From Spirochaetia bacterium (GTDB taxonomy: Bacteria > Spirochaetota > Spirochaetia > DSM-27196 > Salinispiraceae): a stretch of DNA of 25,805 bases. This document shows, one piece after another, positions 12,001 to 18,000 of this stretch. The DNA is taken from contig JBBRCZ010000022.1 in NCBI GenBank assembly GCA_038204425.1, forward strand, positions 1 to 25,805. Direction: 5' to 3'. Position numbers: made by a program. Numbering within the stretch: the stretch's first letter is position 1; each line of letters begins with the position of its first letter.

Positions 12001-15000
12001 CAATAAAAGTGCTCGTTGTTGACCATAGGAGAGTGTTGCAAAGCCTCTAAAAGAGTCACCTTGCATACCAAGGAAACTGAGCCAATTATAGAGCTGTTCT
12101 AATTGTGAAGCGCCTGCTTTAGCATACAATCCAATGCTGTCAAAAAAACCCGACAAAATCACATCGGACAGCGAGATCGAACCCAGTCTCAAAAACTCAT
12201 CGTGCAAGCGCGGCGAAACGATGCCCATTTGTCGGCGCAGTTCCCAGACCGACTCGCCGCTACCTCGTCTGATGCCAAAGATGTAAACCTTGTTGGCGTA
12301 GACTTGCTGACAATCACCGTTGATGAGTCCGAGCAAGGTGGATTTTCCACTGCCGTTGGGGCCATGGACTAATGTATGCTCCCCCGCGCGTAAGGTCCAA
12401 TCAAACTGGTCAAAGACTACGTGCTCGTCCCATTGAACATGTAGCTTGTTCATCTCAACCAAGACCTCTGGCTCTGGCGAAGCAGATGGTGCCTCTTTAT
12501 CAATTAGCAGAACCAAAGGACGTCGATTTCCTTGCTCTCGCTCAAAACCTAAGGACGTCGCTTTAAATTCTTCTAAGCTTCCAAACCAGTGCGGTTCTTT
12601 GCTAGCTTGCGCCGAGAGCACAAGCATGTTTTGCAGGTGCTGCGGCAGCCAAATAAGGTCGGCGCTTGCCCAGATAATTGTCGTTGTTTTAGAAAATTGC
12701 GCCAAGTTCGCAAGCACCTCAGCCAAGGCTCCGCGACTGGCAATATCTAGGCCATCCAAGACGCCGTCCAAAATCAAAAGTCGTGGTCGGCCCATAAGAG
12801 CCTTAAGCAAGATAGTTTTGCGTAGCTCACCTGTCGAGAGAAAGCGCAAGCCGCGGTCCAGCAAGTCTTGCAAGCCAAAGTGCTTTACAAGCGAGCTATG
12901 TTCGCAATAGTCCACCAAATACTGGGCCAGGCTGGTGCCTCGCCAATAGCCGCCCTCGCAAAAGTCACTGTCGTCGTTTTTTATTTCTTCATCAATAAGC
13001 TTCTTGGCAGCTTCTGGAGAAACTAAGCTTGTCCGGCCCAAAGTGCTCAGATCCAGTTTGCATTCGTCGGCATCGCACAGGTCGAGCTGTCCAGTTAAGG
13101 CGGCGCACAAGGCACTCTTGCCGCTACCATTGACACCACTTATTATCAAACCTGTTTGCACAGATATTTTAAACGATAGATCTCTTAGCAAAACTTGATT
13201 GTCCTTGCGGACAGAGCAACCTTTTGCCTCAAAAAGCCAGCTACCGTTCAAAGACTAGATCGTCTTTAACAAGGCTTGGTCCATGGCACGCACAAATGAC
13301 GGGTTGTCCAGTAGCTTACGAGCTTCGGCTGGTTCGACTATCTTGCGAGCTCTAAGTGCACCTTCTTGCCATTTGTTGCGCAAGTGTGACACGGCCATTG
13401 GAAAATAGCTGATGCGATAGCACTGGGTGTCGCGCCAATACCAGCTATTTAGTGCCTTACCGACGATAGTGCCCTCGACGCCAGCCTCTTCCAAACCCTC
13501 GGCCAATGCCGTTTCCTGTGGACTCAGATGTGCCTCCGGGCTTCCTTTTGGAAAAATCCATCGGTTGCTGGTCTTGGTACTAATCAACACGACTTGACGT
13601 GTCTTATTAATTTGAGTGATGGGAATCACACCATAAGATTGCATAGGGGGCAAGAGCAAGCAAGCGAGATCTCTCTTGGCTGTTTCTTCAGTCAAACCAG
13701 CTAGTTTTTTGTTAGAAAAGCGCGGGTTGCCGGTTACTTCTGGACCAAACCAATAGGGAGCTTTAAAACCTGCAGCGGCCACCATATTGGAAAACTCAAC
13801 TTCTACGGTATGTAGTCCGGCCAGAGCTCCCTGATAGACATCAAGCTCTGCTGTATAGCCGCCGATCGTTATCAAAAAGCGTTGCTTCTGTATACGAAGA
13901 CCGTGGCTGTCTTTCCAGAGTGACTCAAATTGGCTCATACTTAGCGTTGTCTCATTCTCCTGCCTTTGAAGACCTGAGCCGGTTTTTATAGTTAAACTAC
14001 ATTTTTTGTTTGCTTGGCGAATACGAATTTCGCGATCCTCATCGACAGATAAATATGCCTGCCTGATGTTGACCAGTTTTGCGCGATGCGCTTCTTCTGG
14101 TACTTCACCAACCAAAAATTTCCGTTCTATCTCTATGCCCATTACAAAACTCCGCGACCTTGTAGCTCTTCAAAAAGCGACTGCAATGCCTGTCCTGCTC
14201 GACTTCCTCTGGCTGACAGCACCAAGGGCGTTTTTTTGATGCCCATCTTTTCGAACTCCACGGACTGCGGCACAAAAGCCTCAAGACTGTTAGCATAAAG
14301 CTGCTTGGTTTGACCCATCAGGTCAAGGTGCAGTTTCTTTCGGGCATCCACCATCGAGAAGAAAGGAATAATTTTTGCAAGATTGCGGCTGTCTTTCTTA
14401 AAAAACTCATTGAGGAAGTCGAGTGTTCTTAGCGACAAGGGACTTGGCACGACCGGAACCAGAACAAAGTCAGCAACTTCAATTATTGCCTCACCGGTCA
14501 GGCCAATTTGGGGTGGAGAGTCAATTACTAGCAGATCATACTGAGTTTTGAGTAGACGGATAAGGGGCTTTAGACCATCGGAACTATCATCAAGTTCCAA
14601 ATCCAAATTTCGCAAGCCCTTGCGGGCTGGCAATACATCCAAGTTTTTTATGTCGCTCGCCCTTATCAGTTCGTTGACCGAGTCTTTGCCATTAACCAGC
14701 GCTTTAATCTTGCCCTTGTCTGCGGCCTCAATATTAAGATAAAAGCTAGCCGCACCTTGGGTATCTAGGTCTAGTAGCAAGACTTTTTTGCCTGACAAAG
14801 CCGACAGAACTGCAAGATTGACGGCTACGGTTGATTTGCCAACCCCACCCTTAACGCTATACAAGGCTATTTTTTTCATTGGTCCCTCCCCCAGGCAGTA
14901 ACGTTCTTAACCAAACCGGTTGTTTGAGCAGATATGCTCTCGCCAGCATGGGCTAGTGCTAAAGACAGATTGGCGTCACTTCTTTCTCCAAGGCGCAAAC

Positions 15001-18000
15001 AGAGATTTTTGAGAGACAGCAAAAGATGCGCTGGCAGCGATGCTTGTTTGCTCGCCATCCAGTTTCTAAACCACTCAAGTTGAACCACAGAATCGTTATA
15101 ACGCCCCAAGTATTTTTGGCTGGTTTTTAGTACTTCTCGCAGCTCTTCAAATTCTGCGCGTGCCGACAAGTCAATTATAAAATCCAAGAGATAACGCAGC
15201 TTTTTGTGTTGCAAACGCAGGTCGTGCACCGAGCTCGCTTCCAAGTCCGAACTCAACAAAAGAGAACCCGCTGCGGTTCGTCCATAGATCTTCTTGAGCA
15301 GGAGCGATGCTTGCATCCGGATAGTTTGCATGCGAGACTCTTCGCTCCACAAGGTTGAGTGAGGCGCCAAGTAGCGTATTAAGTCTTTCCAATCTTCCTT
15401 AAATGGCACTGAACGAAGATAGCTCACCAAGGTTTTATGTGCTTTGTTACGCTGTTTCTCAATTTCCTTAAATACCAGGATGAGGTTGTCCTTGTCTTGT
15501 TCGGCGACTAGGTTTAAAAAATCACGGCTTGACTCAAGCAATACGTCCAAGTCTCTTAATTGATTGCTAGCGGTCATCATCTGCGCAAGTTTAGCCCTAA
15601 GCACTGAGAGATCCGGGCTCAAAGACCCCTTAAAGATGCTCAAGAGCGATCTGACTTTGCGCTGTTGGACCCTAAATTCGTGCAAACACTCGATGTCGGC
15701 GTCCGAGCAAATCCCCTCAATCATGGTCTGGCTTTGCTCAAGATAGGCCAAGCATGCTGGAGAGAGTGCCTCATTGACCAAACTGGAAGGACTAAGGCTA
15801 GGCGTTTTGAGTTTTACCATGCTTATTTCCAAAGCTTGGCAAATTAACAGACCCAGGTCAACACCCTTCACCGATCCAATGTGGTTCTCAAGGTAGCCTA
15901 TCAGTTCCTGAGCCTCGCGCTCATAGCCTCTGAGCACCTCATAGCACAAGAACTCAACTTTGGTCTTGCCTGTCAAACAGGTAAACCAAAGGCGCACTAT
16001 GCCCTTGTTTTCCTTATTCTTCCACAAGTACTCAAACCGCTCAATTTCCAGCGCGCCAAGACTAACGAGTGCCCACCCTTGGTAGCGTCTCCAACTTGTG
16101 GGTGCAAATGATTCGTGGAATGTGGCATCTGCTCTAACAAGGTCAAGCAGCAGGCCGTGTCTGCGTTCCGCCTCTAGCTCCAAACAAATCGATCCTGACT
16201 TGAGAAGCAAGTGCTGATAGGTATCAATCACTTTACATTGCACAAGACTTCTAGCCTGCAAGACCAAAGGTGCTTTGCTCGTCAAGCGAGCAACAGTAGC
16301 ACCTAAACTGAGGAAATCAAGCTTTTGGATCGGACGAATCGTGGGCACCATGCTCCTCCAAATACTTTGCAATCAGTTCTTCCAATATTTTTTGCACACT
16401 TGTCTCGTTCTGGATGGCCATTATCTTAAGTGCCTTCAACATTTTTTTGTTAAGACGCAGTGAGGTATTGGTTTTTTCGTCAGACTTATCTTTTTTTTTC
16501 GCCATTGCAATTAATCCTTATGCTGATCATCGTAACATAGAGACGTCAGTACGTCAAGACATAAAACTGATACTGCCGTCAGTTTTCTGCTAAGTGGCCT
16601 AAAAACTCTTCAAAAACTTCTAAGTTCCTGACGATTTTGTAACCATCGTCTAACATCAGCCGCGCAAGCTTGGCTTCGGGGGTGGACTATGAAACTGGCA
16701 TACTCGGTCAATGGCGAAGGATTTGGTCACGCATCACGCATGGTGGGTCTAGTGCCGTCGCTAGAACGCTGGCACAGTATAGAGCTTTTTTTGCCTGCCA
16801 CAGTAAGCACCTTTGTTGCTAACAAGTTGCCCGGCAAGATAAGCCAGCTCATACCATCCTTTAATTTTTGTAAAAAGGGCGATCGTATACTCTACGCCAA
16901 AACGATTTGGATGGGTCTTATAAGTACAATCGCCACTCTAAAGGTTCTACCTAGCTTAGTTCGCTACTTAAAACGTGGAAAGTTTGACGGAGTTATTAGC
17001 GACTTTGAGCCAGTTATGGCTTGGGCTGGACGTTTGGCGGGACTTAGGGTGGTGCAGTTTAATCATCCGGGCATAGTGCTCAGGTACCCAAAAATTACTC
17101 CCAGCTCACTTATGGCTTCCATAGTCTCGTTGATGATGGAAGGACCATGGTCAGCTCGTTTGCATTGCAGTTTTTTTGGTGGCGACATTGGGCCCATTAT
17201 TCGCAAGACATTACGCAACTACAGCGTGAGCCAAGGCGACTATGTCGTGCTCAATCTCAAAGACGGCTATCGAGAGGCTGCTCTTGATACTTTGTCTGCC
17301 ATTTCCAAAAGCATGCCAAACCTCCACTGGAGAGTCTTCCCCAACCCCAACGAAGACTTTGAAGCCGCCCTTGCCGGGTGCCGTGCCGTTATAACAGCCG
17401 CTGGTCACCAGATGTTGTCTGAGGCCTTGGTCTTGGGCAAACCAGTTTTGGCATTGCCCCAACGCGGCCAAGATGAACAGCAGCTCAATGCCCGTATGTT
17501 AGAACGGTCTGGCCGAGGCATGACAGCCCAGCTATCTGATCTTGAGAAAGCCCTGCCAGTCTTTATTAATCGCTTGCCACAATTTGAGGCGGCGTTTCGA
17601 CAAGCGCCAAGCAAACACTTTTGTTTCAATGACTCAACTGATCAAGCAGTTTTTGCTATAACAAGAATGTTATTGCGCCGTCGAGAAAGAAAACAACAAG
17701 TTAGGTACATGGCGCCTACCGACATGGGCCTGCCCTTTGAGTCATGGCAACTCTTTGAGAGCGAGGGTATCGCCGCCGACCCCGATGTCTTTAGAGTTTG
17801 CGTTATCGGCTCGGGTTACGTCGGACTCTTGAGCTCTGCAGGTCTGGCGGACATTGGTCATCAATGTACTGGACTTGACCTAGATCACGATAAAGTCGCC
17901 TTGCTATCGCAAGGCAAGTCCCCTCTCTTTGAGCCAGACCTTGACCAAGTCCTCAGTCGAAACATTAAAGCAGGTCGCCTACGCTACACGTGTGATGCAG

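Follow-up and report, generated by a model that had tools for sequence, protein, structure and literature searches.

A candidate polyphosphate-associated ParA-CHAD operon in a Spirochaetia bacterium

Organisation of the locus

The window, a stretch of 25,805 nucleotides from a Spirochaetia bacterium, contains an operon of four overlapping genes, preceded by a promoter-like site and followed by co-directional phosphonate genes. The features are the following:

16529..16557, minus strand: promoter-like site (TTGACG, 17-nt spacer, TACGAT, with TG ahead of the second hexamer); consensus match only
16540-16557: two TGACGT hexamers, candidate operator of the RHH protein, overlapped by the promoter-like site
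16317..16505, minus strand: ribbon-helix-helix (RHH) protein, 62 aa, with a Lys-rich N-terminal tail (Pfam RHH_1)
14876..16348, minus strand: CHAD protein, 490 aa, proposed cargo adaptor (Pfam CHAD, AF2, Foldseek)
14142..14879, minus strand: ParA/MinD-family ATPase, 245 aa, deviant Walker A (Pfam AAA_31)
13255..14142, minus strand: CYTH-NUDIX fusion, 295 aa (Pfam CYTH and NUDIX)
11800..13251, minus strand: double ABC-ATPase, ModF-like, 483 aa (Pfam, NCBIfam)
532..11723, minus strand: phosphonate ABC transporter and C-P lyase genes (Pfam Phosphonate-bd, PhnG, PhnH, PhnI, PhnJ and others)

Consistent with the first-pass annotation, the ORF listing places the four genes at these coordinates, with overlaps of 32, 4 and 1 nt in the order RHH, CHAD, ATPase, CYTH-NUDIX, and the Pfam search returns the same domains (RHH_1; CHAD; AAA_31, CbiA, ParA, BcsQ and MipZ; CYTH and NUDIX). 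The 490 aa of the CHAD protein are counted from an ATG; a TTG further upstream, at 16372, would give 498 aa. The transcription unit probably has a fifth gene, that of the double ABC-ATPase, whose start lies 3 nt past the CYTH-NUDIX stop. This ATPase scores 319 bits with the ModF model NF008186, below the cut-off of 459, and shows no conservation at related loci, where tblastn gave generic ABC matches alone (4/80 loci). The genes at 532..11723 constitute a phosphorus-scavenging cluster composed of a PhnD/C/E-like transporter, PhnG, H, I and J, K/L-type ATPases and a PhnM-like amidohydrolase.

The RHH protein passes the Pfam RHH_1 cut-off (25.7 bits for 20.5) and is 57% identical to the ORF at the same position in genome G022 and 53% identical to its counterpart on a Paracoccus aestuarii plasmid. 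The promoter-like site lies about 24 nt upstream of its start (as a consensus match, such sites number 9 for 5.8 expected), and non-palindromic TGACGT pairs within 14 nt occur five times genome-wide. TGACGT(CA) motifs likewise closely precede the RHH gene both in G022 and on P. aestuarii p296221. This protein had initially been compared with ParG-type partition adaptors, with the caveat that it may be a simple repressor. We now put autoregulation first, since the promoter-like site shares positions with the TGACGT repeat, a motif that two distant loci have also retained: judging from these sequences, the RHH protein is likely the autoregulator of the operon and would most likely repress it at the TGACGT repeats of its promoter.

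Features of the encoded proteins

The ATPase, whose N-terminus reads MKKIALYSVKGGVGKST, carries the deviant Walker A box K10-GGVGKS-T17 and matches Pfam AAA_31 with an E-value of 2e-33. It remains under the cut-off of every NCBIfam equivalog (90 for 180 with ParA_partition, 67.7 bits for 157.85 with BcsQ) and is placed by its sequence in a separate family, with members about 247 aa long and K10, G11-K15, D37, D39 and D120 as invariants. The best solved match, the ParA family protein 8RAY, reaches an E-value of 1e-19 only. In sequence, chromosomal Soj/ParA proteins (E 1e-15 to 1e-19) are nearer to the ATPase than FleN, MinD or BcsQ-type members are, and its D-x-R arginine is aligned with the corresponding one in the 8RAY ParA; in Bacillus Soj, non-specific DNA binding requires this arginine. 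A canonical ParA-ParB pair is encoded elsewhere in the genome, so that the ATPase of the operon is an extra one.

The CHAD protein, the product of the only CHAD gene of the genome, has a ygiF-like build in which a degenerate triphosphate-tunnel (TTM) domain precedes CHAD. The CHAD domain covers residues 201-427 (Pfam, E 5e-32), while CYTH was not found by Pfam search of the 490 aa; residues 1 to about 160 form, in the AF2 model (pLDDT 87, pTM 0.84), a degenerate TTM/CYTH-like beta-barrel without the ExExK motif. With Foldseek, the CHAD part matched 6QVA, a CHAD structure with polyphosphate (E 7e-12, TMt 0.89), the full length matched ygiF (5A60, E 4e-7) and the N-terminal part matched TTM folds (E 2e-3 to 5e-2). 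Residues H223, R226, R265, H375, R378, K382 and R385 are invariant in the family, from which the protein itself is divergent (about 20% identity, and a single non-self match at E<=1e-20).

In the CYTH-NUDIX fusion (Pfam E 1e-6 and 2e-6, respectively), which is 42% identical to the same-position ORF in G022, the CYTH half is a NeuTTM-like triphosphate tunnel metalloenzyme with the ExExK motif present as EIERK; the fusion matches NE1496 (2FBL/3TYP) with an E-value of 2e-27. The Nudix half is DIPP/Ap4A-hydrolase-like, an Aquifex Ap4A hydrolase being nearest (E 1e-7), followed by diphosphoinositol polyphosphate phosphohydrolases (E 2e-5). Its Nudix box (G200-V222) retains E215, E218 and E219 and deviates at two positions, L206 and A214, where E and R are expected.

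Conservation of the ParA-CHAD pair and predicted contact

A CHAD gene (Pfam) lies directly upstream of the ATPase gene in 56 of 80 loci that cover Pseudomonadota, Actinomycetota, Acidobacteriota, Calditrichota, Thermodesulfobacteriota, Spirochaetota and others; about 32 of these pairs overlap by 4 nt. With a CHAD-family profile, and with the order and the window included, this arrangement is found in 76/110 loci. The claimed conservation of the pair was therefore upheld, usually as a translationally coupled pair and across many phyla. Within the order, the count of ATPase orthologues given previously (32 of 98 genomes) was recovered as 33 of 99 at E<=1e-25 with the window's own genome counted, as was that of CHAD genes directly upstream (18 of 29 fetched loci). 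When 110 family members are placed on a tree, every deep branch is CHAD-linked and unlinked members form nested clades; linkage requires 12 changes for a mean of 29 in shuffles, none of 500 shuffles being as low as 12, in a control that leaves relatedness uncorrected. CYTH and/or NUDIX relatives are present in 7/80 loci and, within the order, lie downstream in 3 of the 12 linked loci (out of 18) for which larger regions were fetched.

The order RHH-CHAD-ATPase-CYTH-NUDIX recurs in G022 and on the P. aestuarii plasmid p296221. We considered whether the RHH protein and the ATPase could, as a type Ib-like (ParF/ParG-like) pair, partition or tether the DNA of a replicon or genomic island, with the CHAD and CYTH-NUDIX genes as passengers. 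The basic N-terminal tail of the RHH protein, the repeats upstream of the operon (the usual place of type Ib centromeres), the RHH-bearing module on six Paracoccus plasmids, the extent of the window, which is one complete 25.8-kb contig, and a weak structural-sequence match of the ATPase to ParF (E 7e-7) all fit such a pair. However, only 9 of 72,556 plasmid records have an ATPase match at E<=1e-20, all on replicons of at least 92 kb, and closed chromosomes (3.9 and 5.05 Mb) carry linked loci. Moreover, tblastn detected the RHH protein in none of the 80 loci from other phyla, of which 56-57 have CHAD; the gene order is RHH-CHAD-ATPase and not parA then parG; the two hexamers do not form an array; and the contig bears housekeeping-type phosphonate and sugar-nucleotide genes, with no replication or transfer genes among its Pfam matches. 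Altogether, we regard a type Ib-like pair as very improbable.

A complex of two ParA copies with the CHAD protein was modelled in three runs, with three controls. The score was 0.62 in all three runs, a mark met by 116/157 solved complexes and 2/215 mismatched pairs, and the best control gave 0.00; at least 95% of the contacts agree between runs, with a partner pLDDT of at least 78. The ATPase is thus predicted to bind the CHAD protein, docking on its TTM-like N-terminal domain through ParA residues 49-50, 70-81 and 216. On the CHAD side, the contact residues include K115 (100% conserved), G141 (98%), Y142 (93%) and R119 (77%), and mean conservation is 0.68 at the interface versus 0.37 across the remaining N-terminal domain. 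On the ParA side, conservation of the contacts R49, D76 and D81 reaches 97-99% among 76 linked members but 52-76% among 29 unlinked ones. In seven phylogenetically independent pairs, this triad tracks linkage in a mean of 4.2 and opposes it in none, and three control positions change in 0-1 (sign test, median p 0.125, underpowered). The ATPase of the window itself has N49 and K216 where linked members carry R.

The adjacency might also reflect co-regulation only, the ATPase positioning or regulating another cargo and being physically tied to neither the CHAD protein nor polyphosphate. Indeed, ATPase orthologues persist without any CHAD protein: the CHAD family was missing, by profile (positive control 5/5), from 10/10 genomes of the order with an unlinked orthologue, and Pfam CHAD was not found in 5/5 such genomes, two of them closed. 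Of 251 sampled genomes from the phylum, 17 have the ATPase, 20 the CHAD family and 10 both; the genes are adjacent in only 3 of these 10, and the ATPase is alone in 7. Unlinked orthologues occupy unrelated contexts, and in 5 of the 11 loci examined the upstream slot holds a small ORF (94-121 aa; weak coiled-coil-type matches in 4/5), which suggests other partners of the ATPase. In the same phylum sample, a profile of the N-domain did not separate linked CHAD proteins (one weak match and one without match, n=2) from unlinked ones (three weak matches and seven without, n=10). The CHAD-less genomes and the adjacency counts of the phylum sample speak against an exclusive ParA-CHAD link. Co-regulation alone nonetheless appears improbable to us, considering the 4-nt overlaps retained across phyla, the complex score set against its controls, the fact that the predicted contacts fall where conservation is highest in a domain that is poorly conserved elsewhere, and the relaxation of the ATPase contact residues where CHAD is lost.

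Polyphosphate context and proposed role

The ParA-CHAD pair often adjoins polyphosphate enzymes. PPK1 lies within 5 kb in 7/80 loci and PPK2 in 6/80, and the ORFs directly upstream of CHAD (36 scanned) include four PPK1, one PPK2 and one Ppx-GppA, as well as two ROK kinases, one His_Phos_1, one H+-PPase and two PIN-PhoH proteins. The polyphosphate genes listed earlier for this genome were found again, as one PPK1, three PPK2 genes (four domain matches) and one Ppx adjoining PPK1.

We propose that the operon is a good candidate for machinery organising polyphosphate storage granules. By analogy with other ParA systems, its best reading is a polyphosphate-associated ParA system that positions the granules, to which we give a probability of roughly 45%. 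The CHAD domain would bind the granule surface and make the 490-aa protein a cargo adaptor, as homology and fold suggest and in line with established CHAD biochemistry. The N-terminal TTM-like domain, which has lost the catalytic ExExK, would serve in this model as the docking surface for the ATPase. The latter keeps all ATP-binding and dimer-forming residues, and might alternate, as other ParA proteins do, between an ATP-bound state distributed over the nucleoid and a released one, thereby spacing the granules and delivering them to both daughter cells. The substrates hydrolysed by the CYTH-NUDIX fusion would be tripolyphosphate and further polyphosphates, short or nucleotide-linked, that arise from granule turnover. 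In the first-pass annotation, the ATPase was already proposed to position granules through the CHAD protein; the conserved pair, the polyphosphate-enzyme neighbours, the predicted binding and the supernumerary ATPase speak for it. As first worded, the proposal is not fully supported: an adaptor role of CHAD cannot account for everything, given the CHAD-less genomes that keep the ATPase family, and in the phylum sample the two genes are adjacent in only a minority of the genomes with both.

Alternatively, the two proteins could form a complex on polyphosphate in which the ATPase acts as a nucleotide-dependent switch or scaffold when granules are assembled, remodelled or turned over, with no nucleoid positioning; such an ATPase might bring in or gate the CYTH-NUDIX hydrolase or the kinases, or polyphosphate rather than DNA might be its polyanionic matrix. 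Some ParA/MinD relatives (for example BcsQ, FlhG/FleN and MipZ) are scaffolds or switches and not gradient-forming positioners, and these families are among the weaker matches of the ATPase. All the support for a physical and genomic ParA-CHAD link fits this role equally, the neighbouring genes encode enzymes that make or degrade polyphosphate, with no DNA-handling genes, and the 1-nt overlap couples translation of the hydrolase to that of the ATPase. Nothing observed tells this role apart from positioning; the proximity of the ATPase to Soj/ParA and its aligned D-x-R arginine weigh against it, and we consider it somewhat unlikely.

Two recent sources list the ATP-dependence of polyphosphate granule positioning as 'Unknown' (a 2025 review) and call its mechanism undefined (a 2026 preprint). 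Weighing against the positioning reading, polyphosphate positioning in Synechococcus elongatus is reported as independent of its only ParA-family ATPase, and granule formation reportedly changes little in several organisms when phosins are deleted. For one genus, the gene cluster has been published before, though not interpreted as serving polyphosphate-granule positioning. Finally, the location of the operon in front of the phosphonate-uptake and C-P lyase cluster suggests a role in the physiology of phosphorus storage and scavenging.

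Organisation of the operon and its products

As claimed by the first-pass annotation, four minus-strand open reading frames (ORFs) that overlap by 32, 4 and 1 nt and carry the domains assigned to them (Pfam) form an operon, which is followed downstream by a fifth gene and a phosphonate cluster:

16317-16505, minus strand: RHH (ribbon-helix-helix) protein, 62 aa, Pfam RHH_1
14876-16348, minus strand: CHAD protein, 490 aa, Pfam CHAD at residues 201-427, residues 1-200 without Pfam assignment
14142-14879, minus strand: ATPase, 245 aa, Pfam AAA_31, CbiA, ParA, BcsQ and MipZ
13255-14142, minus strand: CYTH-NUDIX protein, 295 aa, Pfam CYTH and NUDIX
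11800-13251, minus strand: fifth gene, ModF-like double ABC ATPase, starting 3 nt past the CYTH-NUDIX stop
532-11723, minus strand: complete phosphonate ABC transporter and C-P lyase cluster (Pfam)

The phosphonate cluster (PhnD/C/E-like proteins, PhnG, H, I and J, two ABC ATPases, an amidohydrolase, a hexapeptide transferase and a PHP protein) has the orientation of the operon and may share its regulation; a terminator scan from the four genes to the downstream ABC ATPase gene returned candidates at chance level only (10 found vs 6.8 expected). Divergent from the operon, positions 16689-19220 of the plus strand encode an 843-aa fusion of an MJ1255-type glycosyltransferase and a UDP-glucose 6-dehydrogenase. 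The window is one entire contig (25.8 kb) of a 2.84-Mb genome that encodes elsewhere a PPK1 adjoining Ppx and three PPK2 genes; no second CHAD gene was found in the rest of these 2.84 Mb.

By motif and similarity, the 295-aa product of the last gene of the operon is a predicted triphosphate tunnel metalloenzyme (TTM): its residues 4-8 read EIERK, an ExExK motif that lines up with the ExExK of Nitrosomonas NE1496 (2FBL/3TYP, E 2e-27). The NUDIX domain scores 28.6 bits (Pfam cut-off 21.1), and this half of the protein is closest to Ap4A hydrolase and diphosphoinositol-polyphosphate phosphohydrolases. Set against the Nudix box consensus, Gx5Ex7REUxEExGU, the segment G200-V222 has L for the first E and A for R and keeps E215, E218 and E219 of REUxEE; because of the L and A at two consensus positions, Nudix activity is uncertain. 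The R-E of the box is retained by the orthologue in G022, a genome of the same taxonomic order.

The CHAD protein belongs to the CHAD/phosin family by profile (Pfam CHAD, 112 bits vs cut-off 25.6), helical fold and conserved His/basic residues, seven of which (H223, R226, R265, H375, R378, K382 and R385) do not vary across 44 sequences. Its AlphaFold model (alignment of 44 relatives, pLDDT 87, pTM 0.84) was compared with solved structures by Foldseek: the C-terminal ~300 residues match the polyphosphate-bound CHAD structure 6QVA (E 7e-12, TMt 0.89), the full-length protein matches Escherichia coli YgiF (CYTH-CHAD, E 4e-7) and for the beta-rich N-terminal part triphosphate-tunnel folds are recovered (E 2e-3 to 5e-2, TMt ~0.45). 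The succession of a TTM-like barrel and a CHAD domain, together with the conserved CHAD histidines and basic residues, is shared with YgiF and the phosins (6QVA, 6RN5 PptA). Unlike YgiF, the window protein has no Pfam CYTH match at E<=0.01 in its N-terminal domain, no ExExK in the N-terminal strands, and other conserved residues there (D42, D45, R88, K115, G141 and Y142). A catalytic CYTH-CHAD enzyme of YgiF type was therefore rejected, and the N-terminal domain looks like a degenerate tunnel domain. YgiF is not known to be encoded beside a ParA gene. A homologue search with the CHAD protein gave one non-self match. Polyphosphate binding by CHAD is described in PMC6537752, and by homology the window protein would bind polyphosphate and localise to granules.

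By sequence, the ATPase belongs to the ParA/MinD deviant-Walker-A P-loop ATPases (AAA_31, 116 bits vs cut-off 27; CbiA, 57.6 vs 25.4; Pfam). Among 30 family members all nucleotide-binding residues are invariant, including K10 and G11-K15 of the deviant Walker A box (KGGVGKST, residues 10-17) and the Walker A'/B aspartates D37, D39 and D120. It falls under the cut-off of every NCBIfam equivalog, and neither a chromosomal/plasmid partition ParA (NF041546 ParA_partition, Soj; 90.3 bits vs cut-off 180) nor MinD (TIGR01968; 60.3 vs 212.9) was retained as its identity. Pfam detects no ParB domain beside it; the ParB of this genome adjoins another ParA, with which it makes up a canonical pair on contig C5. 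An anti-phage defence system was also rejected, PADLOC giving only short P-loop matches. The ATPase belongs to a distinct family of ~247-aa proteins (word-based search, 3325 at E<=1e-10 among 8000 scored; best non-self match, 55% identity). Among solved structures its best match, with E no lower than 1e-19, is to a ParA family protein.

Association of the ATPase with CHAD proteins

A profile-guided scan over many phyla, with one genome per species, provided 80 loci around members of this ATPase family. In 56/80, a Pfam CHAD domain is present in the same-strand ORF immediately upstream; 74 loci had a scannable upstream ORF, 18 of them with another domain or none, and six had no ORF by our rule (three cut by a contig end). 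With our own CHAD-family profile, such an upstream ORF was found in 76 of 110 loci, namely 57/80, 18 of 29 from the window's order (in agreement with what had been annotated) and the window itself. The two genes overlap by 4 nt in about 32 pairs. In the ATPase tree the deepest branches are all linked to CHAD and unlinked members form nested clades (part of Methylococcaceae, Steroidobacteraceae, Bacteroidota and some genera of the order), which agrees with an old linkage and several later losses.

Genes of polyphosphate metabolism also occur near the pair: PPK1 lies within 5 kb in 7/80 loci and PPK2 in 6/80, and CYTH and/or NUDIX relatives are found near it in 7/80. There is no universal gene upstream of CHAD, this slot being occupied by PPK1, PPK2, Ppx, ROK, PepN, PhoH or nothing recognisable. 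The 36 ORFs scanned there (out of 48, 12 small candidate ORFs being left out) include PPK1 (four), PPK2 (one), Ppx (one), ROK kinases (two), a SixA-like phosphatase, an H+-pyrophosphatase and PIN-PhoH (two). In four of the 12 linked loci of the order, the slot that holds RHH in the window is taken by an ORF of only 187-222 aa that matches the Phage_integrase catalytic domain (L118:7191-7751, L123:8071-8631, L125:8209-8874 and L127:8039-8599), which overlaps the CHAD gene start by at least 1 nt in three of them. Very Lys/Arg-rich ORFs of 66 and 78 aa precede CHAD in Methylomarinum (L033:716-913) and in an Acidobacteriota locus (L080:499-732); they are histone-H1-like in composition, recall AlgP, and could be spurious. 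In four Methylococcales loci (L012, L021, L059 and L072), a gene for the Mg2+ transporter MgtE lies downstream of the ATPase, with or without an upstream CHAD; Mg2+ is bound by polyphosphate granules. The same parts are ordered differently in a Bacteroidota locus, where a weak CHAD-family match (L075:6108-7166, E 2e-7) lies ~0.4 kb downstream of the ATPase and is directly followed by PPK2.

The structure of the pair was predicted with two ATPase copies and the CHAD protein, each with a separate alignment. The complex scored 0.62 in all three runs (best of three controls 0.00), a mark reached by 116/157 solved complexes and by 2/215 mismatched pairs in a calibration that does not extend to the alignments used here. 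At least 95% of contacts are common to the runs, partner pLDDT is at least 78, and the prediction supports binding between the two proteins. The predicted contact joins ATPase residues 49-50, 70-81 and 216 with residues 108, 113-116, 119 and 139-142 of the CHAD protein, every one of which lies within the TTM-like domain and which include three of the six conserved barrel residues. Conservation on the CHAD side reaches 100% for K115, 98% for G141, 93% for Y142 and 77% for R119, with a mean of 0.68 at the interface vs 0.37 in the rest of the domain. On the ATPase side, contacts R49, D76 and D81 are 97-99% conserved in the 76 linked members and 52-76% in 29 unlinked ones. This triad follows linkage in a mean of 4.2 of seven phylogenetically independent contrasts and never opposes it (median p 0.125, an underpowered comparison), and three control positions change in 0-1 of the seven. 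The window's own ATPase has N49 and K216 and is therefore a divergent member of the family. Taken as a whole, we give a functional and probably physical link between the ATPase and the polyphosphate-binding protein a probability of roughly 70%.

It had been proposed that ParA uses the CHAD protein as adaptor to position and partition polyphosphate granules. This interpretation is supported in part. The link of the two proteins stands as likely, but the ATPase family is not exclusively tied to CHAD: our CHAD-family profile, which recovered 5/5 positive controls with the same query, matched nothing in the whole genomes of ten members of the order whose ATPase orthologue lacks a CHAD neighbour, and Pfam CHAD matched in none of five of these unlinked genomes, two of them closed. 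In a phylum sample of 251 genomes, each at least 90% complete, the ATPase is present in 17 and the CHAD family in 20; both occur in ten genomes, where they are adjacent in only three, and the ATPase is alone in seven. A profile built on the N-terminal domain alone matches 12/12 linked CHAD proteins of the order, but in the phylum sample it fails to tell linked CHAD proteins from unlinked ones. Unlinked ATPase orthologues have unrelated gene contexts. Among 11 further unlinked loci, five have a small ORF of 94-121 aa in the upstream slot, four of these with weak coiled-coil-type Pfam matches:

L129, 5036-5398: small upstream ORF
L130, 4245-4550: small upstream ORF
L133, 5184-5534: small upstream ORF
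L137, 4979-5260: small upstream ORF
L139, 4087-4401: small upstream ORF

These ORFs may encode an alternative partner, and the ATPase family may thus work with other proteins than CHAD.

The RHH protein and its candidate operator

The 62-aa RHH is not a general third component of the system, since tblastn found it in none of the 80 multi-phylum loci; its distribution is limited to a sub-type made up of the window, six Paracoccus plasmids and G022. In G022 the gene order, RHH-CHAD-ATPase-CYTH/NUDIX, is that of the window, and RHH and hydrolase are 57% and 42% identical to those of the window. Plasmid p296221 of Paracoccus aestuarii encodes, in turn, a hypothetical protein of 62 aa (53% identical to the window RHH), CHAD, an AAA ATPase and CYTH-NUDIX, and five other ATPase-bearing Paracoccus plasmids also match RHH. 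These replicons bring to mind a plasmid partition system, a reading we regard as unlikely because the family is rare on plasmids (only 9 of 72,556 plasmid records, all large replicons); linked loci are also found on closed chromosomes.

The window, G022 and p296221 (3/3) all have a TGACGT(CA) motif immediately before the RHH start, and in the window two TGACGT hexamers overlap a promoter-like site. For these reasons the RHH is read as a putative autoregulator of the operon acting at a candidate operator; a role as ParG-like co-factor through its lysine-rich tail is possible. The ParF/ParG partition system (type Ib, TP228) similarly combines a small Walker-type ATPase with a small RHH bearing a flexible basic tail, and in the window repeats upstream of the operon could serve as operator. 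In type Ib systems the ATPase gene precedes that of the RHH centromere-binding protein and an array of repeats forms the centromere; in the window the RHH gene comes first, the CHAD gene stands between RHH and ATPase and there are only two TGACGT hexamers, at the promoter. Closed genomes carry the locus on the chromosome, most CHAD-ATPase loci have no RHH, and ParF matches the ATPase weakly and over part of its length.

At the start of the PHP protein gene (532-1398), the last of the phosphonate cluster, TTTGTACGTCAT occurs twice as a direct repeat (positions 1368-1395), with an ACGTCA/TGACGT core in common with the candidate RHH operator. Non-palindromic TGACGT pairs no more than 14 nt apart number only five in the 2.84-Mb genome, two of them on the window contig.

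Candidate function and known systems

Placement and inheritance of polyphosphate granules in bacteria is an open question, for which AlgP of Pseudomonas, a passive DNA-binding protein, is the sole factor known so far. A 2025 review gives AlgP as the only polyphosphate granule positioning factor and marks the ATP dependence of this positioning as 'Unknown'. The positioning mechanism is described as undefined in a 2025 review and in a 2026 preprint; the preprint also reports, for Synechococcus elongatus, that polyphosphate positioning does not depend on the single ParA-family ATPase of this organism. A literature search, with subscription journals outside its coverage, found no published ParA system for polyphosphate granules. 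A published precedent is the Acidithiobacillus folD-ppk-parA-CHAD cluster (PMC10892726, 2024), in which parA adjoins CHAD and ppk1 and which is described as highly conserved in the genus. It resembles the window in its parA/CHAD neighbourhood; in the passages of that article consulted, ParA is called a plasmid-partition protein, no granule-positioning role is proposed and, unlike here, RHH and CYTH-NUDIX parts are not treated.

By analogy with known ParA systems, granule positioning is the best single mechanism for the pair, and we rate it a little under even odds. Alternatively, the ATPase would act on polyphosphate as a regulator or scaffold instead of positioning granules on the nucleoid; sequence data do not tell these two readings apart. 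For granule positioning, a close model is McdA/McdB, where a small ParA-type ATPase without N-terminal DNA-binding domain is likewise encoded beside its cargo-binding partner and where the expected logic is the same: an adaptor bound to cargo other than DNA, and an ATPase bound to the nucleoid. Identity with McdA/McdB was rejected: the window contains no McdB-type adaptor or carboxysome genes, its 490-aa TTM-like/CHAD adaptor is unrelated to McdB, the cargo here would be an inorganic polymer granule, and McdA structures match the ATPase at no better than E 1.5e-9, behind the Soj proteins. AlgP of Pseudomonas aeruginosa, to date the sole protein connected with an even spacing of polyphosphate granules, and PhaM/PhaF of PHB granules also tie a storage granule to the nucleoid; unlike the window system, which would be energy-driven, AlgP and PhaF each act as a single DNA-binding tether of histone-H1-like type and involve no ATPase.

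A joint reading, which we consider less likely than not as a whole, would make the system the first energy-driven (ParA-type) machine for the spacing and inheritance of an inorganic polymer. A catalytically dead triphosphate-tunnel domain would have been re-used as the ATPase-docking module of the polyphosphate-binding adaptor; adaptors would be swapped between lineages, with CHAD proteins in most and small ORFs (some with weak coiled-coil-type matches) in others; and in the window sub-type the Lys-rich-tailed RHH would have a dual role as operon repressor and as ParG-like co-factor tying the system to TGACGT sites. A ParA-type ATPase physically tied to a polyphosphate binder would make granule placement directly testable; it would also add an inorganic polymer to the known cargoes of ParA systems (DNA, protein shells and protein clusters) and provide the widespread CHAD 'phosins' with a first function. 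The search matches include cultured carriers, namely Paracoccus aestuarii DSM 19484, Paracoccus marcusii, Methylomonas lenta R-45370 and Thalassobaculum litoreum DSM 18839.
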